A stretch of DNA of 25,280 nt, taken from IMG/VR virus record IMGVR_UViG_2713896907_000003; one strand, written 5' to 3'. The stretch comes from a virus (taxonomy: Duplodnaviria; Heunggongvirae; Uroviricota; Caudoviricetes). Shown piece by piece: positions 13,771 to 25,020 of the stretch (position 1 is the first letter of the stretch; every line of letters begins with the position of its first letter). Below the pieces are notes generated by a model. That model was not told where the DNA came from. It did no database searches and saw nothing but the letters and a program-made list of their open reading frames with translations. Position numbers and translations under genes: made by a program.

Positions 13771-17448
<3,678 letters not shown>

Positions 17449-17477
<29 letters not shown>

Positions 17478-17979
17478 CCGCAAATTCCTTCATTTTTTCA
17501 GCAGATTCAACGCATTTATTAGCTCCCTTCGCAACAAGCTCTTTCAGATAAGCCAATTGTCTGCCTGTCAACTCAGGGAATTTTCTTTGCATCGAAAGCG
17601 GAATACTGTCCAGAACAGATGCCAGTTCTCCGGATAACCGGGACAGTGCAAAAACAGAGAAAGCGGTATCAATCACTTTATGCTCTGCAACCTGGTTTTT
17701 TAACCGCTGAGCAATAGCCTGTTCTTCCGTCAGATTAACCCTGGCCTGAAGTAGCCTTTCCTCAAGGTTATTTTCACCATCTGAAGATTTCTGGTTTTGC
17801 TGACGTCGCTCGCGATCTATCTCCAGTACAGTTTTAACGTCATAGAAAACCTCTCTCCCCCGGCGCTCAACAGGAGGGACACCCCATTTATCAAATGCCT
17901 GTACTGAGATACCGATGGAGGAGGCCATGTCGCTTTTATTCAATAAAAAGGCCACAGCTCCTCCATAAACCACCGGCAA
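17449..17979 (-). CDS. Nu1: Terminase small subunit (Nu1-like)
   Basis: 176-aa ORF directly upstream of A with a 29-bp overlap. The central region (DTAFSVFALSRLSGELASVLDSIPLSMQRKFPEL) is lambda Nu1-like; the N-terminal HTH region and C-terminal tail differ. Start uncertain: TTG at 17979, no clear RBS. Confidence 0.7.
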
Positions 17980-17987
17980 AAAAGCAA

Positions 17988-18122
17988 TACAACAACCCCG
18001 TTTTTTGTAAAACCCTCTGATTTTACATGCTTTTTCGTATAAGAAAGCTCATCAGGTTGTTGTATTTGTTTTTCTTTCTTATTACTTATCAAGTAGATAT
18101 ATCAAACGATAAAACAACAACC
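17988..18122. repeat. cosB-like repeats: three copies of (T/A)ACAACAACC, the middle one inverted
   Basis: TACAACAACC at 17988-17997, its reverse complement GGTTGTTGTA at 18056-18065, AACAACAACC at 18113-18122, all between the Nu1 start and cosN. Confidence 0.45.
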
Positions 18123-18149
18123 ACCACCTCAAAAAAACTCATAAATAGC

Positions 18150-18185
18150 GAAAACCCGCGAGGTCGCCGCCCCGTAACCTGCAGG
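18150..18185 (-). other. cos site (cosN), 12-nt cohesive end GGGCGGCGACCT at 18161-18172
   Basis: Minus strand reads GGGCGGCGACCTCGCGGGTTTTCGCTATTTAT, matching the lambda left end as recalled; the plus-strand side ends ...CTGCAGGTTACG. Confidence 0.85.
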
Positions 18186-18379
18186 ATCGCCGGAAAGGAC
18201 CCACAAAAATGATAATAATTTCATGTGAATAATGCTCATCACAACGATGTGTGTGAGCCATCAAACCACGACAAACAGTTAATTATGCAGCAGATATCGT
18301 ATTAATTGATCCGCATCAAGTTAACGTAAAAGCAACTTCAGACAATACAAATCAGCAACACTGAATATGGGGCAACCTT

Positions 18380-18604
18380 ATGTCATCGAAGAACAGAACC
18401 CGAAGAACAACAACCCGCAACATCCGATTTCCAAACCAGATGATTGAACAAATTAATATTGCTCTTGACCAGAAAGGTTCAGGGAATTTTTCAGCGTGGG
18501 TTATTGAAGCCTGCAGAAGAAGATTAATTAATGAAAAATATTCTCAATTTTTACCCAACAAAGACAAACACGACCAGAGCACCTGTTCAGACAGGTTTAC
18601 TTAA
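18380..18604 (+). CDS. ylcI: YlcI-like small protein (DUF3950; possible ribbon-helix-helix DNA-binding protein)
   Basis: 74-aa plus-strand ORF MSSKNRTRRTTTRNIRFPNQMIEQINIALDQKGSGNFSAWVIEACRRRL..., resembling the DLP12 YlcI family as recalled; followed by a hairpin terminator. Confidence 0.55.
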   Translation: MSSKNRTRRTTTRNIRFPNQMIEQINIALDQKGSGNFSAWVIEACRRRLINEKYSQFLPNKDKHDQSTCSDRFT

Positions 18605-18620
18605 ATAACTTATATATGAC

Positions 18621-18650
18621 ACAAAAGCGACCACTAAAGTCGCTTTTTAT
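18621..18650. terminator. Hairpin terminator between convergent ylcI-like and PerC-like genes
   Basis: AAAAGCGAC-CACTAAA-GTCGCTTTT followed by TTTATT on plus; A/T runs on both flanks suggest a weak bidirectional terminator. Confidence 0.5.
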
Positions 18651-18684
18651 TATGGTAACAGGCAATAACTCTCTCAGATATTTT

Positions 18685-18999
18685 TTAGCATTTTTTTGAC
18701 CGCGCGTTTCCGGACGTATTCTGTTCTCCTGTCCCTTTATATCGTCGGAATACCCGCCGCTCTTCAAATCCCATTCCCAACTCAGAATGTAGTCTGTTGA
18801 CCGCTTGTTTTATTTCTGTCAGGTTCACCGGTGAAACCGGAGTCCGGCGCGCCTTACGCAAACACTCTGCTCGTTTCTGTGCCGCCACTTTTCTTTTCTG
18901 GTCATCACTTAGCTGTACCATCACTTTTGCCCATCGTTCAGCTGCTCTCCGGTACAGTCCTTTTTTCTCCAGACATTCTGCCAGGTGATCATGTAGCAT
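18685..18999 (-). CDS. PerC/Pch-family transcriptional activator-like protein (phage cargo)
   Basis: 104-aa ORF with a strong GGAGG RBS; the N-terminal LEKKGLYRRAAERWAKVM motif resembles the PerC family as recalled. Preceded by a ~460-bp AT-rich leader. Confidence 0.5.
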   Translation of the reverse strand: MLHDHLAECLEKKGLYRRAAERWAKVMVQLSDDQKRKVAAQKRAECLRKARRTPVSPVNLTEIKQAVNRLHSELGMGFEERRVFRRYKGTGEQNTSGNARSKKC

Positions 19000-19463
19000 A
19001 AGTGACCTCCGATTATCTACAGACTGCTATCCTGAATTTACCTTCCTTTAATGAAATAACAATAAAAAATAAATCACAGAAAAACAACAAAACAACACAC
19101 AAAAAAACTAAATAATAAACCCCAATAATCACCTTATTTTATTATTTTTTGAGAGAGCTATTACTGAACAAAAAACGCTGACTATATACTCAAAACCAAA
19201 CAACTATTCTGCCAATCAGGTATAATGGCAACACAAGGAATTACCGTGTTTTTGCCTTCTCTGCCCATACAATACGGACATATACTTCATACTCTATTGT
19301 AATATTTCCATCCATGCGAACAACTTCATTTATCTGTAAATAATATTCAAAATATTTATCACAGAAATCGTTTTTGGCCATGATCTGAGCACACTATAAA
19401 GTCCGGAACTGACTTTTTGTTAAATTACCTTAACGTTACCAGTAACACCTTCATAACAAAACA

Positions 19464-19928
19464 TCACGGTATACACTGGGTACGGATATATTCCTGTGCT
19501 CCTTCCAGTTGCTTCTGCATTGTCATCAGCCGTTCTCTGAGGATGAAATAATCCCGTTCAGCGGTGTCTGCCAGTCGGGGGGAGGCTGCATTATCCACGC
19601 CGGAGGCGGTGGTGGCTTCACGCACTGACTGACAGACTGCTTTGATGTGCAACCGACGACGACCAGCGGCAACATCATCACGCAGAGCATCATTTTCAGC
19701 TTTCGCATCAGCTAACTCCTTCGTGTATTTTGCATCGAGCGCAGCAACATCACGCTGACGCATCTGCATGTCAGTAATTACCGCATTCGCCAGCTTCAGT
19801 TCTCTGGCATTTTTGTCGCGCTGGGCTTTGTAGGTAATGGCATTGTCGCGGTAATGATTAACAGCCCATGACAGGCAGGCGATAATGCAGATAACCAGAG
19901 CGGAGATAATAACGGTTACCCTGCTCAT
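19464..19928 (-). CDS. Rz: Spanin inner-membrane subunit Rz
   Basis: Start at ATG 19928 in ATGA overlap with R; [44 protein letters not shown]... matches lambda Rz. Confidence 0.9.
19526..19708 (-). CDS. Rz1: Spanin outer-membrane lipoprotein Rz1, embedded in Rz in the +1 frame
   Basis: 60-aa [49 protein letters not shown]... with lipobox VVGC and a proline-rich segment, lambda Rz1-like. Confidence 0.85.
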
Positions 19929-20422
19929 TGTTGCCCCCACAAACAGACTTCACGCTCAATCTCGCGGCGAGTCATCAGCCCTTTCCATTGCTTACCGCCA
20001 GCGTATGTCCAGCGCCGTAGCTGATCACATGCGCCTTTGATATCGCCCTGGTTTATTTTGCGAAGAAGCGTCGATGTTCTGAAATTGCCAGCGCCCACGT
20101 TGTAAACGAACGAGTAAAGAGCGCCGCGCGTTGTTTCCGGTATATCGACGTTGATGTACGGGTTAATTTGTCTGGCGACCGTGGCAAGGTCTTTATTCAG
20201 GAGGGCTTTGCATTCTGCTTCGGTATACGTTTTACCGGGCATGATGTCTTTTCCGGTGTGTCCGTGACATACAGTCCATACGCCAACGATATCTTTGTAT
20301 GGTATGTAGCTGACACCTTCCAGACCATCGTTACCACCTGGACCAGTGATGAGCACAGACGCTATGGCAACAGCCCCACCACCAATAGCAGCTGCAACAG
20401 CCTTGCGTAATGACGGCGACAT
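19925..20422 (-). CDS. R: SAR endolysin R (T4-lysozyme-like fold, phage-21 type)
   Basis: 165 aa; N-terminal Gly/Ala-rich weakly hydrophobic segment [20 protein letters not shown] (signal-anchor-release), then E..D..T spacing (E-9-D-6-T) as in T4 lysozyme; resembles R21 as recalled. TAATG overlap with S. Confidence 0.88.
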
Positions 20423-20628
20423 TATTCACCTCTCGCAGCCTTACGCTTATCTTCTTTAATCTTGAAATAAAGATTTGTCAGATACGTCAGCAGGCCAAAC
20501 AGCAGACTTCCCAGCACACCTATTGCCACCCACTGGGACGGAGAGACTTTGTCCAGCAGCTGCAGTAACCAGTATCCCGTCCCCACCGCTGACGTGGTGT
20601 ATGACACACCTGTTGTGATTTTTTCCAT
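20422..20628 (-). CDS. S: Pinholin S (phage-21 type, two transmembrane segments)
   Basis: 68-aa ORF with TMD1 [14 protein letters not shown] and TMD2 [18 protein letters not shown] and a basic C-terminus; sits directly upstream of the SAR endolysin. Confidence 0.85.
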
Positions 20629-20671
20629 CTGATGTATGTCTCCGTCACCGCCGACAGAAAATGAAAGTAAA

Positions 20672-20709
20672 GAAAAACAAAAAAGCCGCCAGTGTCACCC
20701 ACTGACGGC
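20672..20709 (-). terminator. Strong intrinsic terminator ~40 bp upstream of S
   Basis: Minus strand: 10-bp stem GCCGUCAGUG/CACUGGCGGC (one G-U), loop GGUGA, then UUUUUUGUUUUUCUUU. Confidence 0.6.
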
Positions 20710-21075
20710 CAACACCGGGAGCCGTGATTATGGCATTCAGGCTCTGCTAAAAATGCCAGATAACATTCCGGCTCCCCCCCTGATTCAGGTTATAAATGAC
20801 ACAATATCTTGACAACATCCGTCACTGTCTGTCAGAAAATGTACCGCCATATAGAAGCAACATGTGAAGTACATCTATCCTTTTGAGCCAGCACCTCTTC
20901 ACCGAAAGTCAGTGCTGGCTGTTTTTTTCCTTAATAAAGCATCTGTAACTGAAACAATCCGCATATTGATAATATATTGACAGGCATCATTGCTGTCTGT
21001 GAAAAATAAGTCTCTACAAACATATAAGGCCTTTTAGCCAGCGTCTTCTTTCAGGTCAGTCGCTGGCTTTTTTTA

Positions 21076-22917
21076 TTATGCTGCCGGTGCATTTATCTCC
21101 AGCACCAGACTTTCTATCTCAACGCCATACGCTGCATTTTTTGTAACATCCGTCAGCGTCAGCGCATTCAGTCCCAGTGTCAGACTGTCTTTTATAACCT
21201 GGAATGCCGGGCCAGCCACTCCATTCAGTTTCGGAGTAACCGTGGCACTGCCGGCGGTGAACACCAGCTCCAGCGCCTGCCAGTCGTTACTGTAGTTCCC
21301 GAATTCCCCCAGCTTCGTGTTTCCTGACTTCCTGTGGTGCATCAGATTCAGTTTGCCGTCGGTGGTCTGCGTAAAGTACGACATCAGGAACGGATCACCA
21401 GTCCCCGTCATCGTCACACCATCAGGAACAGGAGCGTCTGTGTACAGATAAAGCCCCAGTCCAAACTGGTTGTTTGTCAGAGCACCAGTCAGACGGAACT
21501 TACAGGTCAGCTTCCCTCCCCGGCTCAGCAGTGAGGATGCATTCTTCACCGGATGCGATAGTATCCAGCTTTTACCGCTCTCTTTGACAATTCTCAGTAC
21601 GCCATCCGATAACTGAACGCTGCCCCCGGTAATATTCCACCCCTGAGAAGCAACATCGCCGGCGGAGGCCAGAAGCGATATCGATTCCAGGGATGAGTCA
21701 TCCGGCGACGTAGAGCCACCTGCTGATGGTGTGTTCTCCGGTTTTACACCGGCAATAAATGCCTGTGAGCGCCCTGCCTGCGACAGGATAGCCGAGGCCA
21801 TTCTGTCTGCAATAATCCCACGCCGTGCCCAGGCACTGAAATGGCTCGCACGGTCTGCTGACGTCCAGTTGGCCGATGTCCGGGATGCCGCCCCGTAATA
21901 ACCGGCAGCCACGATATCCGGATCTTCCGTCGGCTCATTCGTGGGCGTGTTTTCACCACTGCCATCTGTCATAAAAGGAACAAAGAAAATATTCTGTGCT
22001 TCCTTTCCTTTATAAGCGCCATACACCGCCTCATATTGTGTGGCGTACTTCTGTTTCCAGATGTATGTGGTGTCGCCACAAATCCACGGCACTTTTTGAG
22101 CGCTTCCACCATGACACTGCGCCGCCATACCGGCAAGGTCGCTACGGAACTGCTGCACCATCGACTGGAATGCTGCAGGCTGCTGAGCATAGCCAGCGTT
22201 TGTCATATCGAATTCACCCTGCATCCAGCATACCGCCAGCAGAACATTTTCAGGATTCTTCGCCAGTGCCGCTTTTGTACGCAGTATCAGATCCTGATAT
22301 AACGGCTTACCCACTCCCCAGCGCGCAGAGTTCTGGCTGGCCCCCGTAGCTTCACTGAATGTACCATCCGCCCCTGCTGTAAATGCTGAACCGCCACGGG
22401 AGCAGGGAACCAGCAGAATCCCGGCATTTTTTGGGATATACGGCAGCAGACGTTTGGCGATATGTAAGCCCTGTCCGACACACCCATACTGACCTTTGCT
22501 TAAATCTGCTTCAGGGTGACTGAACACACTCATATCCTGCACATCATGCAGACAATGATCTGCCGGGATCACATCGTTAAATACACATGCCTCTCCGCCA
22601 GGCGTCACCGTACTGCGACGTGCCAACTGCTTAATACGCGGATCAGGCGCATCATATGAATCAGGAAGAGGAATACCCTCACCATAAGACATGGCATTGG
22701 ACTGTCCGGCCAGCACGACCACGTAGTACCACTCCGGCTCAGTTGTGCCACTGACCACCACATCACCTTCTGCTGCAATCGCCTGCATCAGGGTATAAGG
22801 AGTTATGGCCACAGGGCTACCAAACGGCTGCCAGCCTTCTTTCAGTTTTTGCGTGAGCTTGTCCGCCAGATCTGATGGCGATGCTGCCCGCACAATATCG
22901 TAACGATTAATCGACAT
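21076..22917 (-). CDS. nanS: Phage sialate O-acetylesterase NanS-p type (SASA/DUF303 N-terminal domain, C-terminal beta-rich domain)
   Basis: Start trimmed to ATG 22917 (GGGAGA RBS): MSINRYDIVRAASPSDLADKL...; contains the LAGQSNAMS motif typical of sialic-acid-specific acetylesterases; occupies the post-stx position of Stx-phage late regions. Confidence 0.8.
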   Translation of the reverse strand: MSINRYDIVRAASPSDLADKLTQKLKEGWQPFGSPVAITPYTLMQAIAAEGDVVVSGTTEPEWYYVVVLAGQSNAMSYGEGIPLPDSYDAPDPRIKQLARRSTVTPGGEACVFNDVIPADHCLHDVQDMSVFSHPEADLSKGQYGCVGQGLHIAKRLLPYIPKNAGILLVPCSRGGSAFTAGADGTFSEATGASQNSARWGVGKPLYQDLILRTKAALAKNPENVLLAVCWMQGEFDMTNAGYAQQPAAFQSMVQQFRSDLAGMAAQCHGGSAQKVPWICGDTTYIWKQKYATQYEAVYGAYKGKEAQNIFFVPFMTDGSGENTPTNEPTEDPDIVAAGYYGAASRTSANWTSADRASHFSAWARRGIIADRMASAILSQAGRSQAFIAGVKPENTPSAGGSTSPDDSSLESISLLASAGDVASQGWNITGGSVQLSDGVLRIVKESGKSWILSHPVKNASSLLSRGGKLTCKFRLTGALTNNQFGLGLYLYTDAPVPDGVTMTGTGDPFLMSYFTQTTDGKLNLMHHRKSGNTKLGEFGNYSNDWQALELVFTAGSATVTPKLNGVAGPAFQVIKDSLTLGLNALTLTDVTKNAAYGVEIESLVLEINAPAA

Positions 22918-23003
22918 CGAATTTCTCCCATGCACAGGAATAGAGTAAAAAAGGCCGAAACAGAAGAAAATCACAGGATGAGCATCTGCCAGTGGCAGAT
23001 CGT

Positions 23004-23029
23004 AAAAAAAGGCCGCGCCATGCGCAGCC
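23004..23029 (-). terminator. Intrinsic terminator ~90 bp upstream of nanS
   Basis: Minus strand: GGCUGCGC-AUG-GCGCGGCC (8-bp GC stem, one G-U) followed by UUUUUUU. Confidence 0.5.
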
Positions 23030-23514
23030 AAAACTCACAAGGAAAATGATAAGTAGAATCACAACTTTGATATATGCATGGTCCGGTGGCCGCCCCGGTG
23101 AATTCAGTATCAGCACCTGAATCCGCGCCCCCCAGTATTCCAGCCTGCTGATAACCTCTTACACATGGGGATTCGCCATACGGCAGTATTTCTAATAAAC
23201 AGTAAGTAAAAAAATCAAGCATTATTCAGACTGTTTCTTTTCATCACCGACCACCGTAATGTCACAATCCCACGCATCATCACACCATCAGCCAGTACCG
23301 ACATCAGACGCCCGGTGAAATCCACTGCCACCACCAGAAACAACATGATGACAGTCTGCCCAAAGCGTGCACTTTCCACAGATACTGCCCAGCGGTAACT
23401 GCAGAGCCTGCGCCAGTGGGTAACCAGCCTACGGAGGACGTCACACTGACTATCCCGTAAACCCATCCATGAAAAGCTTTATGGTTGATATGCACCGAAC
23501 GTGGCGCAGATATG

Positions 23515-23538
23515 AAAAAAGCCCGCCGAAGCGAGCCT
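23515..23538 (-). terminator. Intrinsic terminator downstream of the tRNA cluster
   Basis: Minus strand: GCUCGC-UUCG-GCGGGC (UUCG tetraloop) followed by UUUUUU. Confidence 0.5.
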
Positions 23539-23549
23539 GATAATAAATC

Positions 23550-23624
23550 TGGAGCGGGTGGCGGGAATCGAACCCGCATCATCAGCCTGGAAGGCTGAGG
23601 TAATAGCCATTATATGATACCCGC
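23550..23624 (-). tRNA. tRNA with anticodon loop CUUCCAG (anticodon UCC, glyT-like scaffold)
   Basis: 75-nt cloverleaf folded by hand: acceptor GCGGGUA/CACCCGC, perfect T-arm GCGGG-UUCGAUU-CCCGC, perfect anticodon stem UCAGC/GCUGA, CCA encoded. Confidence 0.75.
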
Positions 23625-23627
23625 ATA

Positions 23628-23703
23628 TGGTGCCGACTACCGGAATCGAACTGGCGACCTGATGATTACAAGTCAGTTGCTCTACCATTGGAGCTAAACC
23701 AGC
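23628..23703 (-). tRNA. tRNA-like gene, aberrant (weak anticodon stem; loop CUUGUAA; isotype uncertain, possible pseudo-tRNA)
   Basis: 76 nt with perfect D-arm GCUC/GAGC, T-loop UUCGAUU and CCA end, but the anticodon stem pairs at only 3 of 5 positions and the T-stem has one mismatch. Confidence 0.5.
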
Positions 23704-23708
23704 ATGTT

Positions 23709-23783
23709 TGGCGGGACAGCGTGGACTCGAACCACGATAAGAAGGTTAACAGCCTTCCGTAATGATCTTTATACGACTGACCC
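23709..23783 (-). tRNA. tRNA with anticodon loop CUGUUAA (anticodon GUU, Asn-like by sequence)
   Basis: Perfect T-arm CGUGG-UUCGAGU-CCACG and anticodon stem GAAGG/CCUUC; acceptor stem has one mismatch; CCA encoded. Confidence 0.65.
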
Positions 23784-23787
23784 CAAT

Positions 23788-23830
23788 AAAAAAAGCCACC
23801 GTTGCAACTTAAGAGTCACTAACGGCAGCT
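23788..23830 (-). terminator. tR'-like terminator immediately downstream of the late promoter
   Basis: Minus strand: 9-bp stem GCUGCCGUU/AACGGUGGC (two wobble pairs) with a 17-nt loop, then UUUUUUU; lies between the promoter and the first tRNA. Confidence 0.45.
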
Positions 23831-23837
23831 TACCTTC

Positions 23838-23870
23838 TAATTATGGCTAAATGGATAATTGCATGTCAAG
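23838..23870 (-). promoter_or_regulatory. Late promoter pR'-like (sigma70 -35 TTGACA, 18-nt spacer, -10 CATAAT) overlapping the 3' end of Q
   Basis: Minus strand: TTGACA (23869-23864), spacer tgcaattatccatttagc, CATAAT (23845-23840); position just after Q mirrors lambda pR' (established knowledge). Confidence 0.45.
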
Positions 23871-24365
23871 GCCTTTAACAGCAACATGCTTAACTTTCTC
23901 AACACGTTTACGCATTTTGAAAGCATTTTTCATTGGCTGGTATAAAACAAATAATGACGCTTTCAGGATGTCGTCAATTTCGTTTCTACAGGTTGCCAGT
24001 GAAGGTTTTCTCCATCCCTCGCCACCACGTCCACACATCTTGCGTGGCTTTGCAGTCGCGTGATAGTAGGATGCAATTGCTCGCTTAGATGAACCATGAG
24101 CGTAGTAGCTGAGGAGGATGCCGAAGGCTTTCTTGTCAATGTACATGACGGAATCGACGACCTGAGAAATCAACATTCCATCATCATCATTACACATTGG
24201 CCTTGTCATAACTCTTCCCGGCTCTACGCTCTCCATGAACTTAGCTATTACGCTGCTCATGCGCTTTTCCAGACGACCTGAATAAACCCATGCGCCCCAC
24301 AGTTCAAGCCAGCCATTCAGCCACTCGTGCTGTTCTTTGGTGAGGTTTAGTTCTCTTATGCCCAC
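23847..24365 (-). CDS. Q: Late-gene antiterminator Q (non-lambda Q family)
   Basis: ORF upstream of the late promoter, tRNAs and lysis genes; LELWGAWVYSGRLE motif resembles the QuuD-type Q family as recalled. Start placed at GTG 24365 behind a GGGAGAAGG RBS; the track's longer form (start 24422, GTG, no RBS) overlaps ninG. Confidence 0.65.
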   Translation of the reverse strand: MGIRELNLTKEQHEWLNGWLELWGAWVYSGRLEKRMSSVIAKFMESVEPGRVMTRPMCNDDDGMLISQVVDSVMYIDKKAFGILLSYYAHGSSKRAIASYYHATAKPRKMCGRGGEGWRKPSLATCRNEIDDILKASLFVLYQPMKNAFKMRKRVEKVKHVAVKGLDMQLSI

Positions 24366-24408
24366 GCGCCTTCTCCCTTGTGATTTGGAATGTGTTTTAC
24401 TGAGAACG

Positions 24409-25020
24409 TCATGCAGCCTCACTTCTGCTGTTTCGCAGTTTTTTAAGTTTCTGTTGATACTCCGCCTTGATGGCCCTGCACTCTTCGACAGTCCAGCGAT
24501 GGCGGTTATGGTCTGATTCGATTTCCTCTACTGCTTCCTGCCCGATGCGGTTAATCAGTTCGACACGATACGGAACGAGATTTCCGCTTTTATGCTGGTT
24601 GCACACCACGCATTGCTTGTGAATATTGCGTTCATCAAACCGGAGTTGAGGTGCCGCAGCAGTTGTCCGGTAATGCCCGGCATCCCACTGAGCAGACGTG
24701 AGCGTTCCGCACGAGATACATGGTAAGTCGCGGTCTCTTTCTCTGATGAAGGCGTTTACGGCTTGTTGGGCTTGTTTAATCCAGTAACTGCGGGGCTTTA
24801 AGGCGAGTTTTCTAATCTTAAGTTTATCTTTCTGTTTCTGCTCCTCTCGTCGTCGTTTCTTCTCTGCTGCTTTTTCCGCTTTTTCGCGTTCTTTGCTTCG
24901 TCGTTCGAGTGCTATCTTGGTTCCACACTCTGGAGAGCACCACCACTGATTAGCGAATGCAGGATGAAACCATTCCCGACATTCATCGTTTTTACATCGT
25001 CTTCGCGCTGGTTTAGCCAT
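24409..25020 (-). CDS. ninG: NinG / Rap recombination-associated structure-specific endonuclease
   Basis: 203-aa [50 protein letters not shown]... matches lambda NinG as recalled; GAGGAAGAAG RBS. Confidence 0.9.

Follow-up and report, generated by a model that had tools for sequence, protein, structure and literature searches.

Since 2004, the pch genes have been investigated as master activators of the LEE in EHEC that are carried on prophages. Three of them (pchA, pchB and pchC) are needed for full expression of ler and espA and for adherence, and pchD and pchE are not (PMC6265319, citing Iyoda and Watanabe 2004). At LEE1, Pch relieves the silencing imposed by H-NS/StpA/Hha: PchA binds the LEE1 promoter region, H-NS occupancy falls both in vivo and in a reconstituted system, and PchA activates LEE1 only with a promoter silenced by H-NS/StpA/Hha/YdgT (PMC4764244). 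PerC, encoded on the pEAF plasmid of EPEC, likewise belongs to PF06069, and PerC and Pch both activate the LEE1/ler promoter (PMC4764244, PMC4456613), LEE expression in EPEC being PerC-dependent only under some conditions (PMC4764244). Unlike the gene described below, perC is plasmid-borne and lies in the perABC operon, and the likeness is one of family. PchD and PchE (groups 2 and 3) are PerC homologues on O157:H7 prophages or prophage-like elements (PMC6265319); unlike group 1 they show other DNA similarity and size and have little effect on the LEE, and PchE represses curli and flagella (PMC6265319, PMC7369912).

The DNA analysed here, called the window throughout, is a stretch of 25,280 nucleotides from a caudoviricete virus (IMG/VR record IMGVR_UViG_2713896907_000003). 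A first-pass annotation, made from the letters alone, had described a 104-aa ORF in it as a PerC/Pch-like regulator with a strong ribosome-binding site, lying where lambda carries bor, and as a possible lysogenic-conversion gene. To place this ORF, we compared it with the Pfam PerC family and with the known Pch proteins. The profile search gave PerC (PF06069) as its only significant Pfam match, at 148.8 bits against a gathering score of 22.6 (E 5.4e-44) and over model positions 1-89 of 90. The protein matches PchB of E. coli O157:H7 Sakai (prophage Sp11) residue for residue (100% identity), and 103 of its 104 residues are shared with Sakai PchA (L6V) and with Sakai PchC of prophage Sp14 (V58M). 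Exactly the same protein sequence occurs in at least 1000 contigs of a protein collection under the names 'PerC family' or 'PchABC family transcriptional regulator'; the UniRef name is the latter, and RefSeq labels the gene at a 99%-identical O55:H7 locus as a PerC family transcriptional regulator. Its length of 104 aa and its near-identity to Sakai PchA, PchB and PchC are those of group 1, which sets it apart from PchD and PchE. The gene is thus a group-1 pch, identified by identity; the family assignment of the first-pass annotation was borne out, no unrelated phage protein matched more closely, and the GGAGG motif just before the ATG agrees with the strong ribosome-binding site.

We put at about 0.93 the probability that the ORF is a group-1 pch gene (pchA/B/C type) and belongs to the cargo that a lambda-like prophage carries at its right end, in the interval from the lysis cassette to cos; no evidence against its identification as pch was found. 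It is a textbook group-1 pch gene at its usual site and as such already known, so that its discovery value is small; its value for annotation is that the prophage is marked as a carrier of a virulence regulator. A weak match to the ANR (AraC negative regulator) family, NF033650, was set aside because its 13.6 bits (E 0.046) fall below the cutoff of 32. A sequence search of the PDB with the pch protein returned no relative (best match E 1.6), and a single-sequence AlphaFold2 model with five helices (pLDDT 50.5, pTM 0.31) was too poor for fold comparison.

The 1.2-kb pch region shares 99.1-99.2% identity with O55:H7 genomes and about 98% with O157:H7, and its best matches among complete E. coli genomes are O55:H7, O157:H7 and O157:H16. 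A scan of species-representative genomes with the single protein as query, which detects close relatives only, found two homologues, one in Escherichia albertii (91% identity) and one in Escherichia sp. MOD1 (77%). We take O55:H7, O157:H7, O157:H16 and E. albertii to be attaching-effacing lineages, and the locus suggests that the source strain is itself an attaching-effacing Escherichia or has exchanged phages with such strains. Of 5426 complete E. coli genomes, 1539 contain some match to the 1.2-kb region, with a median of 2 and a maximum of 10 places per genome, which means that pch copies are often redundant. For the window as a whole, the best match among complete E. coli genomes covers 85% of its length at about 90.7% identity, while the pch block of the window is 99% identical to that of O55:H7.

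No LEE lies within the 25-kb window, and that the window copy acts on the LEE is an assumption. In a LEE-positive E. coli, Pch would be a small helical DNA-binding protein of the PerC family that binds the LEE1 (ler) promoter; its binding would loosen the H-NS/StpA/Hha silencing complex there, so that Ler and in turn the type III secretion genes would be expressed. We consider it unlikely that the protein is a genuine Pch that does not act on the LEE in this host, because the LEE is missing or another copy is redundant with it, and instead works as a general H-NS antagonist on other acquired genes, such as those for non-LEE effectors, adhesins, acid resistance, curli or biofilm. The redundancy of copies would suit such a role, as would the many chromosomal Pch sites beyond the LEE, 88% of which lie inside H-NS-bound regions (PMC4764244), and the influence of Pch family members on curli, biofilm and adhesion (PMC6265319). 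Against it stand the identity to PchB, for which LEE activation is documented, and the closeness of the locus to O55:H7 and O157:H7.

The gene order in the window is S, R, Rz, pch, ylcI, cosN, Nu1, A (Table 1), and all of the phage genes around pch are on the minus strand except the ylcI/ynfO gene; the first-pass annotation had named no strand. In Sakai, Sp11 (pchB, ECs_2182) and Sp14 (pchC, ECs_2737) have the same order of Rz, pch and terminase small subunit, and both genes, together with pchA (ECs_1091, Sp4), have the same type of AT-rich upstream region and the terminator hairpin. The prophage of the window nevertheless differs from the Sakai pch prophages as a mosaic. In Sakai Sp4, the segment from holin through endolysin and Rz to pchA (L002 33365-36375) runs opposite to its usual direction with respect to the terminase and Q genes and has IS629 and ISEc8 copies on its flanks, indicating that this prophage is rearranged and probably defective.

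Table 1. Features of the pch locus and its surroundings, in positions of the window
Feature	Position	Strand	Remarks
Terminase large subunit (A)	15552-17483	minus	
Nu1	17449-17979	minus	Pfam Phage_Nu1
Mosaic block: 3' part of Rz, leader, pch, terminator, ylcI, right side of cos	18139-19867	minus	about 1.7 kb
cosN, lambda-type 12-nt cohesive end site GGGCGGCGACCT, then CGCGGGTTTTCGCTATTTATGA	18161-18172	minus	sequence reading
YlcI/YnfO family (DUF3950) gene	18380-18604	plus	74 aa; convergent with pch
10-bp hairpin flanked by A and T runs	18623-18647	none	likely bidirectional terminator of pch and the convergent ylcI/ynfO gene
pch, group 1 (PchABC type), PerC family transcriptional activator	18685-18999	minus	104 aa, ATG start
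Predicted anti-SD and DicF target in the pch CDS (+48 to +105)	18895-18952	minus	RNA folding, RNAduplex
AT-rich region between Rz stop and pch start (putative promoter and 5' leader)	19000-19463	minus	464 bp, 31.5% GC
Shine-Dalgarno GGAGG	19006-19010	minus	6 nt before the pch ATG; kept in pchA, pchB and pchC
46-aa ORF in the leader	19241-19381	minus	probably not coding
Rz spanin	19464-19940	minus	Pfam Phage_lysis E 2.6e-53; last lysis gene, directly upstream of the leader
Rz1 lipoprotein ORF, embedded in Rz	19526-19708	minus	
Endolysin (lysozyme)	19925-20422	minus	upstream of Rz
Holin, P21-type	20422-20628	minus	upstream of the endolysin

RzoD is annotated at the site in O55:H7 CB9615 that is equivalent to the Rz gene with its embedded Rz1 frame. 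As proposed by the first-pass annotation, pch occupies the position where lambda carries bor, being the last gene of the late strand at the right end of the packaged genome. Its placement between the lysis genes and cos also stands, with the correction that it is not the sole gene there, the ylcI/ynfO gene lying between Rz and cos as well. A ylcI/ynfO gene beside cos is common to the window and to the right end of the lambda/DLP12 type. In lambda and DLP12 the Rz-cos slot is filled by bor and by borD-ybcV-ybcW, respectively, cargo that is dispensable for phage growth. Lambda bor has no sequence relation to pch, and it lies on the strand opposite the late genes, whereas pch in the window is on the same strand as the late genes.

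The cosN site resembles the left end of lambda, and the match extends over cosN plus 22 bases and diverges beyond. Searching the window for a 45-nt pattern of lambda cos, with a tolerance of 3 mismatches, gave no match, because the sequences diverge after ...TATTTATGA. The YlcI/YnfO assignment comes from Pfam PF13132 (E 9.6e-20) and NCBIfam NF041551 (35.5 bits against a cutoff of 30). The 5' part of this gene (18380-18514) is also found, at 91% identity, in Stx phages that lack pch; the homology to those phages ends inside the gene at about 18514, after some 45 codons, so that the C-terminal tail of the protein varies with the neighbouring cargo.

Between the two convergent genes, the hairpin lies 37 nt past the pch stop and 19 nt past the ylcI stop. 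Both the MFE and the centroid structure of a 91-nt fold contain it, and it is kept in the Sakai pchA locus and in O55:H7; the consensus terminator scan did not call it. On this folding it is likely to be a terminator common to pch and ylcI/ynfO.

The stretch between Rz and pch had been described as about 460 bp of strikingly AT-rich DNA with poly-A/T tracts, an account with which our measurements agree. Its GC content contrasts with 48.9% for the pch CDS and 54% for the whole window; only 0.09% of the 464-bp windows across the 25-kb sequence are as AT-rich, and those below 36% GC all start within 18870-19107. Eight runs of at least five A or T bases were observed, compared with 1.85 expected per 464 bp at the whole-window rate. 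The AT-richness of the leader is well beyond chance, and its base composition fits silencing by H-NS, as the first-pass annotation had supposed from the same feature; among the papers found, none describes H-NS bound to the pch upstream sequence itself. When 18100-19500 was searched for repeats and tandem repeats, the search yielded low-complexity A/T-rich matches and a single array, an 8-nt tandem repeat (AAAACAAC, 3.6 copies on the plus strand) at 19081-19108, about 80-110 nt upstream of the pch start, which is GT-rich and T-rich when read on the pch strand. The only sigma-70-like site in the leader found by a consensus scan lies at 19231-19203, in a region (17900-19600) where 2 such sites were found and 4.2 were expected from shuffles, which is below chance level, so that the site does not count as evidence for a promoter.

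Comparison with the Sakai upstream regions showed the leader to be 99.1% identical to that of pchC, 94% to that of pchA and 87% to that of pchB. The window copy thus joins a PchB-type protein to a pchC-type upstream region, which suggests that coding sequences and regulatory regions have been exchanged among the pch paralogues by recombination between prophages. Such recombination could account for the differences reported between pchA and pchB in their regulation.

That the AT-rich region contains a further functional element in addition to the pch promoter, for example a 46-aa small protein, an upstream regulatory ORF or an unannotated small RNA, we regard as improbable. The 46-aa ORF is full-length in 71 of 80 copies, although an open frame says little among copies so similar, and the leader segment from -382 to -242, which overlaps this ORF, is the least variable part, with a diversity of 0.027 versus 0.097 for -241 to -71. 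The codon variants of the ORF, 24 nonsynonymous and 3 synonymous, argue against coding, as does the lack of an SD upstream of it. Neither Pfam nor NCBIfam matched the ORF and PGAP annotates no gene there; Rfam matched only tRNAs in the whole window at gathering scores and nothing in 17900-19700 at E values up to 1, leaving the leader without a known RNA family. With this substitution pattern we consider the ORF unlikely to be a gene; in the original EDL933 record it appears as an 'unknown protein encoded within prophage CP-933R'. It is similarly doubtful that an undescribed regulatory element at -382 to -242, be it a small protein, an upstream ORF, an sRNA or an H-NS nucleation site, sets paralogue-specific responses. 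If such an element did set the signal response of each pch paralogue, recombination could rewire virulence regulation, since leaders and coding regions are shuffled among the paralogues.

The standing of pch as cargo was assessed by blastn of window positions 16000-22500 against 85 loci, 80 of them IMG/VR prophage contigs. The mosaic block recurs with its exact extent in most of the 80 contigs at 90-99% identity. Beside it, the terminase region (window 16000-17408) is either 97-98% or about 69% identical, representing two terminase types, and the endolysin region (window 19868-20422) is often unmatched in prophages that have the block. In the Stx2a-converting phage F349, pch is absent and two other hypothetical genes lie between Rz and the ylcI-like gene; what F349 has in common with the window is limited to the lysis genes and the initial 135 bp of the ylcI-like gene. 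Since the same pch block occurs in different backbones and F349 holds other genes in the slot, the slot is one for variable cargo, in which pch, its leader and its terminator move as a cassette between lambdoid prophages, in keeping with the description of pch as cargo in the first-pass annotation. The gene also has the marks of a moron: it is present in some and absent from other related phages, its leader deviates in base composition, and it has a terminator of its own, the 10-bp hairpin with U runs downstream of its stop. Among 56 distinct alleles, the pch CDS varies in 7 of 315 columns (5 synonymous and 2 nonsynonymous codon variants), with a mean diversity of 0.003 versus 0.03-0.10 for segments of the leader. 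By these alignments the coding region is far more constrained than its flanks, pointing to selection on the protein.

Transcription of pchA and pchB responds to LrhA, Lrp/butyrate and LeuO (PMC4456613). In a lysogen, pch would be transcribed from its own promoter in the 464-bp AT-rich region, and upon prophage induction the Q-antiterminated late transcript would also extend into it, given that pch is oriented like S, R and Rz, the consensus scan found no terminator-like site between Rz and pch, and an SOS-inducing antibiotic strongly induces group-1 pch genes (PMC6265319). These same three observations would suit a mainly phage-serving pch, a late-operon product that alters host nucleoid silencing for lytic growth and affects virulence regulation as a by-product, but we hold this to be very improbable indeed. 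Related phages are without pch or have other genes in the slot, Sakai pchA still functions in Sp4 despite the IS629 and ISEc8 insertions that disrupt this prophage, and uninduced lysogens express and need pch under LEE-inducing conditions (PMC4764244, PMC4456613).

A further step of control may act on the pch mRNA, where an SD:anti-SD hairpin would form that is reportedly opened by the sRNA DicF. The pchA mRNA is reported to inhibit itself through an anti-SD within its coding region; pairing of DicF at this anti-SD frees the ribosome-binding site under low oxygen (PMC7769764, PMC7873438). When the window gene was folded, its SD was predicted to pair with CDS positions +92 to +100 (AAGUGAUGACC) with a probability of 0.53-0.67 in two of three folding windows; in the longest (-120 to +315) it pairs locally with +14 to +17 instead, so that the outcome varies with the RNA segment chosen for folding. 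Around the SD, the predicted fold was no more stable than shuffles (z -0.97). With DicF taken from Sakai Sp4 through its Rfam match, RNAduplex predicted a duplex over CDS +48 to +105 of -46.7 kcal/mol, an energy reached by 9 of 500 shuffles, in which the DicF 5' end UUCUGGU pairs with ACCAGAA at about +98 to +105. The predicted SD partner overlaps this predicted DicF site. The modelled folding is consistent with, but no proof of, the published SD:anti-SD/DicF model.

Several minor observations concern the remaining late region. Between tRNA-Asn(GTT) and tRNA-Gly(TCC) lies a third tRNA-like sequence on the minus strand (23631-23703), which scores 47 bits with the Rfam tRNA model and is called neither by ARAGORN nor by RefSeq at the approximately 99% identical O55:H7 locus; its anticodon loop reads UGU (Thr), and two of its five anticodon-stem pairs are mismatched. 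The late region on the minus strand (21076-24422) has the layout of an Stx phage without stx genes: the Q antiterminator, the tRNAs, a small DUF3927-type gene, so labelled from the annotation at the matching O55:H7 locus, and a 651-aa SASA/DUF1737/DUF6645 esterase, followed by holin, endolysin and Rz.
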